64,000 nt of DNA from Candidatus Iainarchaeum sp. GTDB taxonomy: Archaea > Iainarchaeota > Iainarchaeia > Iainarchaeales > JAZDFD01. The stretch covers positions 39,673 to 103,672 of the forward strand of contig JAZDFD010000026.1 of NCBI GenBank assembly GCA_043808155.1, written 5' to 3'. Below, in pieces: positions 15,975 to 47,611 of this stretch. Under the pieces are notes generated by a model, which saw only the letters and a program-made list of their open reading frames with translations, was not told where the DNA came from and did no database searches. Numbering within the stretch: position 1 is the stretch's first letter; each line of letters opens with the position of its first letter. The translations under genes were made by a program, and so were the position numbers.

Positions 15975-16211
15975 ATGAATGTAAATCTTGGAATCCCTTA
16001 TGAAGCAATTGTAAACAAAGCTATAGACAAGGGTTATGCAGGCAATCAAACAGAAGTTATAAGACAAGCCCTGCTTGCTTATGATAGAATACTGGAAGAA
16101 GAGGAAAAAGAACTTGTTGCCAAGGCAATTAAAATAGAAATGAGTGAAGTAAAAGCAGGTAACATTAAAACAAAATCTTTTGATGCAATGAAAAAAAAGT
16201 TCAAGTGGTAA
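15975..16211 (+). CDS. Putative antitoxin (ribbon-helix-helix)
   Basis: 78 aa with the RHH-like motif GYAGNQTEVIRQAL, 1 nt upstream of a RelE-like gene. Confidence 0.7.
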   Translation: MNVNLGIPYEAIVNKAIDKGYAGNQTEVIRQALLAYDRILEEEEKELVAKAIKIEMSEVKAGNIKTKSFDAMKKKFKW

Positions 16212-16212
16212 A

Positions 16213-16473
16213 ATGGAAGTAAAGATTCTTGAAACCGCTGAAAAAGAGCTTGAAAAAATAGTTAACCCCCTAAACAAGCAGTTCGGAAAACATATTGAAA
16301 AAATTGCTTCAAATGAAACAAGCAGACACCTGAAACATGGTTTGCAGTATTTCACCGAAAATGTTACAAAACAGGCTAGAATTGTTTACTATTTTGAGGA
16401 AAAAACTATTTATGTAATGCACTGCTTCAAAAACCACAAAGAATACGAAAGATGGTATAAATCATTTAAATAA
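16213..16473 (+). CDS. Putative RelE/ParE-family toxin
   Basis: 86 aa basic protein: MEVKILETAEKELEK...ARIVY...IYVMHCFKNHKEYERW. Confidence 0.7.
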   Translation: MEVKILETAEKELEKIVNPLNKQFGKHIEKIASNETSRHLKHGLQYFTENVTKQARIVYYFEEKTIYVMHCFKNHKEYERWYKSFK

Positions 16474-16524
16474 GTTCTGGTTTTTTATTCTTTTGCCTCA
16501 CTTCTAATTATAGCCATTATTGGC

Positions 16525-16586
16525 ATAATGCGAACGACGTGAGCAAGTGCTACCGAAGGTGCACACGCACTCGCCGGGCGCTCGGC
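16525..16586 (+). repeat. tRNA leader module, homologous to 43902-43969
   Basis: ATAATGCGA...GTGC-hairpin-GCAC-ACGCACTCGCCGGGCGCTCGGC matches the tRNA-Ala leader. Confidence 0.8.
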
Positions 16587-16756
16587 GCACGGGTACCGAA
16601 GTGGTTAAACGGGACAGACTCAAAAAAACTTTTAGAAAAAGTTTTAGCAAAAGAAACTTTTCAGAAAAGTTTCATCAAAACTAAAGCTTTATCTTTATTG
16701 AATTTGAGAGATCTGTTGGCTTAGTGCCTCCGTAGGTTCGAATCCTGCCCCGTGCA
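16587..16756 (+). tRNA. tRNA-Leu(CAA) with an 86-nt intron at 37/38 (16625-16710)
   Basis: GCACGGG/CCCGTGC acceptor stem, ACAGA/TCTGT anticodon stem, CAA at 16621-16623, long variable arm, GTAGG-TTCGAAT-CCTGC T arm. BHB motif: CTCA/TGAG helix with AAA and AGA bulges. Confidence 0.92.
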
Positions 16757-16757
16757 T

Positions 16758-16936
16758 AGCCGGTTTCGTCCGGCTGTACCGAGATATGTGCACTGTTGCT
16801 TTGTGCAACAGCGCAGTAATATTTTTCGGAAACTGTGTCATAGCAAAAAGCGTACCCGATTTCTGCTTAGCAGAAATGGGCGCATTTCATCAGAGCTGAA
16901 ATAGCGTGGCACCCGTACTCGCCGGACGTGACGGCG
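16758..16936 (+). repeat. Structured tRNA trailer element, homologous to 44044-44169
   Basis: About 10 differences over 94 aligned nt versus the element after tRNA-Ala; multiple hairpins. Confidence 0.88.
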
Positions 16937-16953
16937 GAATCCTGCCCTGTACA
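16937..16953 (+). repeat. Degenerate duplicate of the tRNA-Leu 3' end (att-like)
   Basis: GAATCCTGCCCTGTACA versus GAATCCTGCCCCGTGCA at 16740-16756 (15/17 identical). Confidence 0.7.
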
Positions 16954-17083
16954 ATTTTCTGATTTATGAAGCGGTACGGATTAGCGAAATAGTAATTAGG
17001 GTTCGTGGGTGTGGGATTTCCTGTAGAATGAAAAGAATTAAATAAAAGAAGAACCACTATTTTTCTACTGAGTGAGTAATAAA

Positions 17084-17527
17084 ATGCCTGCGAAAAGACC
17101 AAAGTACATCTCAAAATTTAGTGCAAGAAGGCGAAGAGCTAATACTGAAGCAAGAAAACAATTTCCGGAATGCGGAACCAAAGATGAAACATTTCAAATA
17201 TTCCGCAATGCTTATCATGCGATAATTCTCGCTGAGGAATTCGGGGGGCTTAATTCTCCTGCAGTCAGAACAAAACTTCGTTTTATCCATCCAGAGGAAC
17301 GCCTGCTTCTCCGAAAATATATCGCTAAAACAACCCGTGACCCAATTCAGCGGCGGATTGTTTGGGAACTTTTAAAGCTTGAGAAAGAGCGTGGCAGATA
17401 TATTTATCCTGACTTCCCAGAAGTGAAACTAACCAGACCGGAAATTAATGCACTTAAAAAAGCACAGGCAGAAATTAATGAACATAAAAAGAAAAAGACT
17501 TCCACGCTTAAATTTAAAAGCAGATAA
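17084..17527 (+). CDS. Hypothetical basic protein
   Basis: Begins MPAKRPKY...RRRR and has a K-rich C-terminus. Confidence 0.6.
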   Translation: MPAKRPKYISKFSARRRRANTEARKQFPECGTKDETFQIFRNAYHAIILAEEFGGLNSPAVRTKLRFIHPEERLLLRKYIAKTTRDPIQRRIVWELLKLEKERGRYIYPDFPEVKLTRPEINALKKAQAEINEHKKKKTSTLKFKSR

Positions 17528-22787: not shown

Positions 22788-22850
22788 AAATAATCACCTA
22801 TCATAATGATATACAAAGAAATATTTAAAGATATCGATTCAAAAATAAAA

Positions 22851-22934
22851 CGCAAGGGACGAGATTCGAACTCGCGCTTCCCGAAGGAAACGGGCTTAGC
22901 AGGCCCGCGCATTAAACCACTCTGCCACCCTTGC
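22851..22934 (-). tRNA. tRNA-Ser(GCT)
   Basis: GCAAGGG/CCCTTGC acceptor, CGGGC-CT-GCT-AA-GCCCG, long variable arm, TTCGAAT T loop, G discriminator. Confidence 0.95.
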
Positions 22935-23070
22935 ACAACCCGATTGCGTACGGGTACTCCGCGTGCCATTTTCAATGGCACTGTCATCATTTCTGATTGC
23001 GTAGATTGGATCCGCAATTCCGCAATGCAATATGTGTGAGTTTTCGTTTGACTCAAACCCACGATAATAT
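22935..23070 (-). repeat. Long hairpin-rich leader of tRNA-Ser containing leader-type hairpins and a core module (23030-23070)
   Basis: ACCCG/CGGGT and GTGCCATT/AATGGCAC hairpins. ATATGTGTG..TTTCGTTTGACTCAA..CACGATAATAT matches the tRNA-Glu intron. Confidence 0.7.
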
Positions 23071-23112
23071 ATCATAAATTAGAGAAACTAATATAAAACG
23101 CGCCTAAGCTTA

Positions 23113-34086: not shown

Positions 34087-34257
34087 GCCCCTGTAGTGTA
34101 GCGGCCAAGCATCCTGCCCTTTCAAACCCGCTTTCGAGCGGGTGGGCCGAGATATGTGTGTTATTTCGTTTTGACTCAATAACACGATAATATTTGAAAT
34201 CATATCTTAGGCTTTCGAAGACAGGCGGTGACCCGGGTTCGAGTCCCGGCGGGGGCA
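34087..34257 (+). tRNA. tRNA-Glu(TTC) with a ~98-nt intron at 37/38 (34125-34222)
   Basis: GCCCCTG/CGGGGGC acceptor, CTGCC/GGCGG anticodon stem, TTC at 34121-34123, CCGGG-TTCGAGT-CCCGG T arm; CTTT/GAAG central helix with an ACA bulge. Confidence 0.9.
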
Positions 34258-43901: not shown

Positions 43902-43969
43902 ATAATGCGAGCACAAAAGTGCGAGCCAGTCCCACTACAGGTGGGACCCGCACCCGCCGGGCGTTCGGC
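43902..43969 (+). repeat. tRNA leader module, homologous to 16525-16586
   Basis: ATAATGCGA...GTCCCAC/GTGGGAC hairpin, CCGCACCCGCCGGGCGTTCGGC. Confidence 0.8.
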
Positions 43970-44042
43970 GGGCTCGTAGCTCAGTTGGTAGAGCGCTGCC
44001 CTTGCACGGCAGAGGCCACGGGTTCGAATCCCGTCGAGTCCA
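43970..44042 (+). tRNA. tRNA-Ala(TGC) in the 16S-23S spacer
   Basis: GGGCTCG/CGAGTCC acceptor with G3-U70, CTGCC-CT-TGC-AC-GGCAG. Confidence 0.97.
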
Positions 44043-44043
44043 A

Positions 44044-44169
44044 GTCCGGTTTCGACCGGACGTACCGAGATATGTGCACTGTTGCTTTGGCAACAGCGCG
44101 GTAATATATTTCGGAAACCGTGCCACAGCACAAAGCGTGTGGCACCCGCACTAGCCGGGCGTTCGGCTA
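44044..44169 (+). repeat. Structured tRNA trailer element, homologous to 16758-16936
   Basis: UUCG hairpin, CCGAGATATGTGCACTGTTGC...GCAACAGCGCGGTAATAT, GTGCCAC/GTGGCAC and TAGCCG/CGGCTA hairpins. Confidence 0.88.
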
Positions 44170-47490: not shown

Positions 47491-47524
47491 ATATTACTGC
47501 ACTGTCACAGACAGTGCTACATGT
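47491..47524 (-). repeat. Isolated core module of the tRNA-associated element
   Basis: Minus strand reads ACATGTAGCACTGTC-TGT-GACAGTGC-AGTAATAT, compared with the Leu copy ATATGTGCACTGTTGC...GCAACAGCGC-AGTAATAT. Confidence 0.65.
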
Positions 47525-47611
47525 GTTCACATCCGGAGCGCCGAATAGTTAGTTTTAAATACTACAAAAACATTAATTTGTCAAATTATATTCATTAAAG
47601 GAGGAATCGGA

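Follow-up and report, generated by a model that had tools for sequence, protein, structure and literature searches.

Why do the genes for two different tRNAs, tRNA-Leu(CAA) and tRNA-Ala(UGC), share the same long, GC-rich flanks? Both genes lie in a 64,000-nt stretch of DNA from Candidatus Iainarchaeum sp. (GCA_043808155.1, contig JAZDFD010000026.1, positions 39,673–103,672 of the forward strand), which was analysed here at its full length and is called the window. A first-pass annotation had placed the two tRNAs inside one homologous cassette of leader and trailer, and had proposed that this is either a miniature mobile element, carrying or targeting tRNA genes, or a co-transcribed RNA scaffold that can be used repeatedly. 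Analysing the window together with the whole assembly (1.08 Mb in 35 contigs, ~35% G+C, rated 88% complete), we found that the cassette is not a single unit. It consists of two kinds of GC-rich hairpin repeat, neither with a gene of its own, which we named L (~60 nt; covariance model R2) and M2 (~70–76 nt; covariance model R1). In our view, L and M2 are probably small insertion elements, non-autonomous and with a preference for tRNA gene borders, a reading that draws on observed copy numbers, tRNA-border placement, flanking duplications, hairpin conservation and one lineage-specific insertion. On this reading, the Leu and Ala flanks are alike because both genes gained the same additions: an L unit 5′ of the gene, and M2 with an L-like unit 3′ of it.

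The Rfam tRNA model found both genes where the first-pass annotation had put them, and all features of the two loci are on the plus strand. At the Leu locus, the leader is an L unit at 16525–16586 (R2 match 16527–16586, 72.7 bits), made up of a GA-containing hairpin (~16530–16544), a variable hairpin (~16547–16564) and a terminal GC module whose final GCCG...CGGC hairpin (16573–16586) is flush against position 1 of the tRNA. tRNA-Leu(CAA) itself (16587–16756; Rfam tRNA model, 41.2 bits) was absent from the default ARAGORN run and was called once introns were allowed. Its 86-nt intron (16625–16710), with the junction taken from DNA contigs that join 16624 to 16711, is AT-rich (GC 0.23) and contains no repeat unit. 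The contigs with this intron-less form of tRNA-Leu came from three groundwater DNA runs; their shorter side is just 18–29 nt, and they possibly stem from other organisms. The trailer begins with an M2 unit at 16753–16826 (R1 73.9 bits, E 9.9e-14), in which hairpin 1 (16758–16775) is followed by a joining stretch with UAUGUG (16776–16789), a variable hairpin 2 (16790–16814) and the motif AGUAAUAU (16815–16822). An L-like unit at 16827–16935 (R2 match 16892–16935) completes it, with a GUGUCAU/GUGGCAC hairpin that holds a nested double-hairpin block and, after it, a terminal GC module at 16906–16935; the trailer thus ends at 16935, one position short of the end first given for it. Beyond it lies a decayed copy of the tRNA-Leu 3′ end (16937–16953), which matches 16740–16756 at 15 of 17 positions, and this direct repeat brackets the 180-nt trailer in the manner of a target duplication.

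The Ala locus has the same layout. An L unit at 43902–43969 (R2 match 43904–43969, 64.8 bits) abuts position 1 of tRNA-Ala(UGC) in the 16S–23S spacer (43970–44042; ARAGORN and Rfam tRNA model), and the tRNA is followed by M2 at 44039–44111 (R1 69.8 bits, E 8.4e-13) and by an L-like unit at 44108–44167 (R2 35.3 bits) that comprises a hairpin and a terminal GC module. No tRNA-end copy was found after the Ala L-like unit, where the flank score of 10 did not exceed the control. In the leader alignment of 16525–16586 with 43902–43969, about 65 nt long, 54 of 93 columns were invariant, and the two trailers were 89.4% identical over 94 nt (10 differences; blastn E 2e-22). These figures agree with the likeness first described, as does the presence in the sequence of all three base-paired differences quoted for it; each trailer also ends, as claimed, in a copy of the last module of the leader (16906–16935 and 44138–44167). 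The GC content of the leaders (0.63 and 0.65) and trailers (0.51 and 0.57) stood out from that of the window (0.36) and the immediate flanks (0.31–0.35), in keeping with the original description. In a scan of the window at the Rfam gathering threshold, 16S, 23S and RNase P RNA were found, and no 5S rRNA was found beside the rRNA operon.

The first-pass annotation had described a pair of cassettes; we found that the units occur dozens of times in the genome. R1 gave 40 M2 matches in the 1.08-Mb genome at E ≤ 0.01 and R2 gave 31 L matches at E ≤ 0.001, and blastn searches with the Leu and Ala flanks gave matches on many contigs of the assembly. Among the latter were two copies of the Leu trailer block 16849–16936 (88 nt) on two other contigs, with 96.6% and 95.5% identity, and a 61-nt copy of the leader, 93% identical, at a site without a tRNA. 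Comparison of the flanks of all 45 tRNAs called by ARAGORN revealed recurring modules, and many of these tRNAs carry neither L nor M2. Among 40 genomes from other families of the same order, 16 contained M2 (1–8 matches each) and 14 contained L (up to 31 matches); in a wider sample of 150 genomes, searched at E ≤ 1e-4, M2 was found in 29, one of which had 18 matches. The layouts recur in these relatives: M2 directly follows tRNA-Ala or sits at the 5′ splice site of tRNA-Ser(GCU) and tRNA-Ala(CGC) introns, L lies against position 1 of tRNA-Val or against a 3′ exon, one intron has M2 on its 5′ side and L on its 3′ side, and in one layout L is followed by a copy of a tRNA-Gly 3′ end. An exact-pattern scan of 185,579 species genomes returned one record, which contains a tandem pair; the pattern was too strict to map the distribution.

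Placement of the units is strongly biased towards tRNA genes. Of the 40 M2 matches, 14 overlap a tRNA or lie within 10 nt of one, compared with 0.34 under random placement, and the same is true of 9 of the 31 L matches, compared with 0.23; enrichment at tRNA borders is thus about 40-fold. Nine of the 14 tRNA-linked M2 copies begin a few nucleotides from the 3′ end of the tRNA, on its strand; three lie in the sense orientation inside the introns of tRNA-Glu(UUC), tRNA-Arg(CCU) and a tRNA on contig 20, one is inverted in the tRNA-Tyr intron, where it adjoins the 3′ exon, and one is on the opposite strand, on the 5′ side of tRNA-Ser(GCU). At the last of these genes (22850–22935), the window holds two weaker M2 matches on the plus strand, opposite to the tRNA and on its 5′ side (22933–22992 and 23003–23074; R1 33.5 and 41.6 bits). 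Three kinds of neighbour adjoin the terminal module of L: position 1 of a tRNA, a 3′ exon, and short duplicates of tRNA 3′ ends. An inverted M2-like sequence, in which an AT-rich end precedes one hairpin and then a GC hairpin, was also seen by eye about 180 nt 3′ of the 23S gene (47493–47550); it is not among the R1 matches at E ≤ 0.01.

The intron copies show how a unit can sit inside a tRNA gene. In tRNA-Glu(UUC) (34087–34257, plus strand), M2 runs from the 5′ splice site (34121–34197, plus strand; R1 76.8 bits) into a 98-nt intron at 34125–34222, and DNA contigs of three runs join 34124 to 34223. The predicted fold has the anticodon stem, a 4-bp helix between the anticodon and the 3′ end of the intron, and a 3-nt bulge, which together form a bulge–helix–bulge. 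This result concerns the tRNA-Glu(UUC) copy only; the copies in the Leu and Ala flanks are not introns. In the intron-less forms of tRNA-Leu and tRNA-Glu in DNA contigs, the shorter side measures 18–36 nt, and these forms may stem from other organisms. The tRNA on contig 20 (3956–4108) was called by ARAGORN as an intron-bearing tRNA-Pyl(CUA); by eye, its anticodon loop reads UCU (Arg), and the tRNA-Pyl call is probably an intron artefact. The intron of this gene contains an M2-like sequence, and a full M2 follows the 3′ end.

Nine further M2 copies are antisense to protein genes; in each, the GC hairpin immediately precedes the gene's ribosome-binding site and start codon. Pfam searches of the nine adjacent genes identified uL2, uL29, eL19, uL18, uL16, an AlaX-type editing protein, the large chain of carbamoyl-phosphate synthase and an epimerase, which is cut by a contig end; the ninth gene had no Pfam match. 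All nine copies share one orientation.

Many copies lie between direct repeats of target sequence. We compared the two flanks of each copy, with mismatched flanks from different copies as the control, and found that 13 of 39 M2 copies scored above the control 95th percentile and 10 above the 99th; for L, the corresponding numbers were 9 and 3 of 22 copies. The direct repeats measure 16–31 nt, with perfect ones of 16–20 nt and near-perfect ones of up to 29 nt. Clear examples match at 17 of 17 nt (contig 31), 16 of 16 nt (contig 2) and 20 of 20 nt (a tRNA-Arg 3′ end); on contig 12, three copies of an 18-nt small-RNA-like 3′ end, identical at 18 of 18 positions, surround one L and one M2, and a 29-nt repeat on contig 28 has one change. 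Duplicates of the tRNA 3′ end follow the units at five tRNAs of this genome (Leu-CAA, Leu-UAG, Glu-CUC, Gly-UCC and Arg-CCU).

The junction between the ribosomal protein genes eL19 and uL18 provides a further case. The gap between the two genes is 116 nt here, and M2 lies in it between two copies of a 29-nt stretch that differ by four changes. The duplicated stretch spans the eL19 stop codon, the ribosome-binding site and the uL18 start codon, and its presence on both sides of M2 means that both genes stay intact. At the same junction in relatives, none of 24 loci had an R1 match, and the gap was −4 to +49 nt in 23 of the 24, the start call of the 24th being unreliable. Because the junction is empty of M2 and tight in the relatives, this copy is a lineage-specific insertion. 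By the same logic, the sequence of the Leu locus can be read as a tRNA, a 180-nt insert of M2 and the L-like unit, and a displaced copy of the tRNA end.

These data favour the mobile-element alternative of the first-pass annotation over its RNA scaffold, in the form of an element that targets tRNA borders. The 'targets' half of that proposal is supported by the many copies, the border enrichment, the duplications and the junction that is empty in all 24 relatives. No evidence was found for the 'carries' half: leader and trailer are separate units that also occur alone and without a tRNA. The scaffold alternative would still be viable on the sequence evidence, in which the hairpins covary across genomes.

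We propose that each unit was inserted many times and that every insertion duplicated 16–31 bp of its target, with a preference for tRNA borders that would place L on the 5′ end and M2 on the 3′ end. M2, at times with L, would also enter the anticodon loop and persist there as a bulge–helix–bulge intron, and the units would be tolerated between tightly packed, highly expressed genes. Transcription would join them to the tRNA, from which RNase P, RNase Z and the splicing endonuclease would then remove them. The insertions may represent true transposition rather than copy-choice replication; the long, variable duplications could be the work of an unusual transposase, or could arise by copy-choice replication where forks stall close to highly transcribed genes. 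A further and rather doubtful extension is that L and M2 are a vehicle of tRNA intron gain, in which a structured cassette inserts at tRNA borders or anticodon loops with a long target duplication, survives where the tRNA-processing enzymes excise it, and serves as leader, trailer or intron.

The units share a conserved architecture. M2, the first 73 nt of both trailers, opens with a GC hairpin whose loop is often of the UUCG type; a joining stretch that ends in UAUGUG, a second hairpin that varies between copies, and a GGUAAUA motif follow. In L, a small hairpin containing two GA steps precedes a variable one and a terminal module that ends in the GCCG...CGGC hairpin; L makes up both leaders, and a shortened L closes both trailers. 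In 23 M2 copies of this genome, 95.9% of the pair cells were standard and 11 of 17 pairs had changed on both sides; the covariation score was reached by none of 500 column shuffles. Shifting the 3′ partner by 1–3 columns reduced pairing to 35–47%. Similarly, in 24 distinct M2 copies from other genomes, which were aligned to the model and whose alignment leans towards it, 96.5% of the cells were paired and 15 of 17 pairs had compensatory changes. The base pair at the foot of hairpin 2 is U.G or U-A in 22 of 23 copies from this genome and in all 24 foreign copies, and hairpin 2 itself varies from ~17 to 33 nt, or more where it contains a nested block. In L, four of the five pairs of the variable hairpin had compensatory changes (14 copies), and the terminal hairpin was invariant. 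The fold of the whole Leu cassette was far more stable than those of shuffled sequences (z = −6.15).

None of this corresponded to an Rfam family. A scan of the window at the gathering threshold turned up rRNAs, tRNAs and RNase P RNA and nothing else; at E ≤ 10, positions 16400–17100 gave the tRNA as the sole significant match, with no ribozyme model matched; and 20 M2 and L copies gave no match at E ≤ 1, to a ribozyme model or otherwise. By eye, none of the consensus motifs for a K-turn, a loop E or a tetraloop-receptor fitted the M2 junction. Nor did the folds reveal the transcribed strand. G.U pairs were commoner on the tRNA-sense strand (62 versus 20 in minimum-energy folds of 26 M2 copies) and the summed folding energies of these copies were alike on both strands (−579.9 versus −592.5 kcal/mol); beyond the conserved U.G pair, A.C mismatches outnumbered G.U pairs by 7 to 3 in the M2 copies of this genome, and the transcribed strand is not evident for this reason. 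In reversed M2, the AT-rich end resembles a TATA box, but the spacing is not fixed because the length of hairpin 2 varies. A double-hairpin block of ~55 nt lies inside hairpin 2 of M2 at four sites (contig 14, 53218–53342; contig 35, 18402–18527; contig 13, 16407–16528; contig 1, 77–197), and also inside the hairpin of the Leu L-like unit (window 16853–16905), so the modules nest in one another.

Several results weigh against insertion elements. Two thirds of the M2 copies, 13 of the 22 L copies and the Ala locus have no flank repeat above the control. In a search of sequencing runs, the best DNA run contained 0.37 of the sampled words and the RNA runs 0.07, and none of the latter contained the organism. 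Among contigs of four DNA runs, none bridged the Leu trailer (in either of its parts) or the Ala trailer, and an empty site was found for neither. As for terminal inverted repeats, the score of the Leu trailer was equalled by 11 of 1,000 shuffles, which is weak support, and that of the Ala trailer by 662 of 1,000, which is none; single M2 units have a GC hairpin at one end only. The 88%-complete assembly contained no match to RVT_1, Cas1, Y1_Tnp, rve, DDE_Tnp_1 or Transposase_mut. The hairpins, the unpaired motifs and the U.G/U-A pair are kept across families, which is more than a decaying selfish repeat needs and points to function. That all copies at protein genes share one orientation hints at selection or at a mechanism with a direction. 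Together, the conservation of stems and motifs and this orientation argue that the units act as RNA or as single-stranded DNA. The covarying two-hairpin core may perhaps be active as an RNA itself, for instance by guiding or carrying out cleavage at the gene-facing end.

Two TnpB-like open reading frames (contig 23, 24585–25826; contig 7, 8169–9413; 413 and 414 aa) have no neighbouring Y1 transposase gene, and the flanks of both were unlike L or M2; we therefore rejected a link. Tyrosine recombinases are represented by one full and one partial gene. A contig of run X4, ~95% identical, fits the window over 16000–16527, which includes the first bases of the Leu leader L unit, and then continues with 163 nt unlike the window; the break at 16527 is a hint of a possible strain difference at the L border.

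The strongest alternative, which we regard as a real but lesser possibility and which is compatible with a mobile origin, is that L and M2 are RNA modules with a function for the host: hairpin 'bumpers' that are co-transcribed with the neighbouring gene and have spread because they are useful. They could set the ends of RNAs or shield them, act as guides for RNase P, RNase Z or the splicing endonuclease, make mRNA 5′ ends more stable, or be released as small RNAs. The strong covariation of M2, its conserved unpaired motifs and base pair, and the stability of the Leu cassette fit this idea, as do the exact abutment of the GC hairpin on mature ends and splice sites in several genomes and its position, on the mRNA strand, just upstream of the ribosome-binding site in all nine protein-adjacent copies. 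However, most relatives lack the units, whose distribution is patchy; many tRNAs of this genome have neither; and units occupy junctions that are tight in all 24 relatives examined. The excess of A.C over G.U outside the conserved pair also counts against an RNA role, with the transcribed strand not evident. Nor is M2 a simple terminator, because the T-run after it is inconsistent: a run of at least 5 was present in 4 of 10 copies 3′ of tRNAs, 1 of 4 read-through copies and 5 of 9 copies antisense to protein genes.

It is much less probable that the leader module pairs with the start of the trailer to form a processing stem, of the kind known from rRNA precursors and from split or permuted tRNAs, and that the splicing endonuclease would free the tRNA from it; introns with M2 followed by L would then be a fused trailer and leader. 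The terminal module of L does resemble the reverse complement of the hairpin 1 side in some M2 copies, introns here and in relatives do have M2 on the 5′ side and L on the 3′ side, and split tRNA halves with a complementary trailer and leader are known from Nanoarchaeum, according to the review PMC4090602. In the minimum-energy fold of the Leu cassette, the only cassette folded for this purpose, the start of the trailer pairs with the terminal module of the trailer, but the leader folds on itself and is not paired with the trailer. Furthermore, the cuts needed at tRNA positions 1 and 73 would face each other directly, whereas a bulge–helix–bulge separates its two cuts by four base pairs. Both tRNAs are complete and colinear, matching the tRNA model end to end (positions 1–71), and are therefore neither split nor permuted; an RNase P RNA gene lies within the window; and the units also occur at protein genes.

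Equally improbable, in our judgement, is that larger plasmids or viruses once recombined into the tRNA genes and were later deleted, and that the copies of tRNA 3′ ends are the attachment-site scars, with small remnants of the integrated DNA left in place. The duplicates at five tRNAs and the full and partial recombinase genes would be expected from such events, and so would the tRNA-Gly(CCC) locus (contig 14, 24668–26212). There, copies of the tRNA-Gly 3′ half lie 0.8 and 1.4 kb downstream of the tRNA, the second sharing 24 identical 3′ nucleotides with it and being followed by an inverted L unit, and small open reading frames of 75 and 110 aa lie between the copies. We take these to resemble an antitoxin–toxin pair, and the locus resembles the scar of an integrated element. 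But the same terminal module meets duplicates at different tRNAs, each of which would require its own attachment site, duplications of equal size occur at sites without tRNAs, such as eL19–uL18, and the inserts are just 60–180 nt long and hold no genes. Finally, a one-off duplication or artefact in a 35-contig assembly is refuted as the source of the Leu/Ala resemblance by the copy counts, since the two cassettes differ at ~10% of positions and copies are present on many contigs and, for M2 and L respectively, in 16 and 14 of the 40 other genomes.

Further modules were seen near tRNAs. A third, a hairpin of ~20 nt (CRAGG–loop–CCUYG) with compensatory changes, is flush with the 5′ end of eight tRNAs (Trp, Pro-UGG, Arg-GCG, Glu-CUC, Ile-UAU, Cys, Asp and Val-UAC) on contigs 1, 6, 12, 24, 28 and 34; at tRNA-Trp, an L unit lies between two copies of it. 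A fourth combines a hairpin with a short stretch able to pair with the loop of the next hairpin, in the manner of a pseudoknot (contig 33, 1308–1352; contig 14, 53101–53148; contig 28, 16967–17090). It lies directly upstream of tRNA-Ser(UGA) and tRNA-Ala(CGC), and two copies in tandem follow tRNA-Asp, each then succeeded by a tRNA-Asp-like 3′ end.

The origin of archaeal tRNA introns is an open question, and a 2026 preprint on Asgard archaea still treats the route of their arrival as such. L and M2 offer a concrete candidate for intron gain. One family is found as an intron of tRNA genes, as their leader or trailer, in an rRNA spacer and, fourthly, between ribosomal-protein genes as a plain insertion with target duplications, which links intron gain to an insertion process with readable footprints. 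Very small genomes without the transposase families searched for thus still carry an expanding repeat family, and annotators of this group should expect long structured tRNA flanks and unrecognised intron-bearing tRNAs.

A literature search found no described family of this kind, as the first-pass annotation had supposed; Fujishima et al. 2010 or the supplements of the papers might describe related ones. The closest archaeal precedent is in Thermoproteales, where near-identical tRNA introns are found in different isotypes, which implies that they spread at the DNA level by an unknown mechanism (Fujishima et al. 2010, via PMC4090602). As here, one sequence family thus serves as introns across tRNA isotypes; in our genome, by contrast, the family also occupies flanks, the rRNA spacer and protein-gene junctions and is accompanied by target duplications, which PMC4090602 does not appear to report. 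The split tRNAs of Nanoarchaeum equitans likewise have GC-rich sequence able to pair directly after the 5′ piece and before the 3′ piece, whereas in our genome no break or rearrangement interrupts the two tRNAs, which are intact and colinear, and units are found beside whole tRNAs and protein genes as well. REP sequences and REPINs are similarly short intergenic hairpin repeats with compensatory stem variation, but they are mobilised by the Y1-type transposase RAYT and make no target duplication, and no Y1 transposase was found here.

[quoted passage not shown] Like L and M2, they are small (60–180 nt), multi-copy, non-coding and mostly intergenic, have target duplications and vary in copy number between related genomes. 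Most transposases produce a short target duplication of fixed length, and to our knowledge long repeats of variable length are made by just a few insertion sequences, IS1634 among them. The units described here differ from MITEs in that they lack convincing terminal inverted repeats, have long duplications that vary from 16 to 31 bp and have stems that covary across families; no cognate transposase was found among the six families searched in the 88%-complete assembly. The GC clusters of yeast mitochondria, the double-hairpin elements of Allomyces, the repetitive hairpin-forming elements of sponge mitochondria and the Rickettsia palindromic elements are also non-coding, nested GC-rich hairpins scattered through an AT-rich compact genome near tRNA and rRNA genes, although their hosts are organelles or bacteria. 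We know of none of them as an archaeal tRNA intron, or abutting mature tRNA ends so exactly. Among known kinds of element, MITEs and these GC-rich hairpins of AT-rich genomes, organellar or small bacterial, stand nearest to L and M2.

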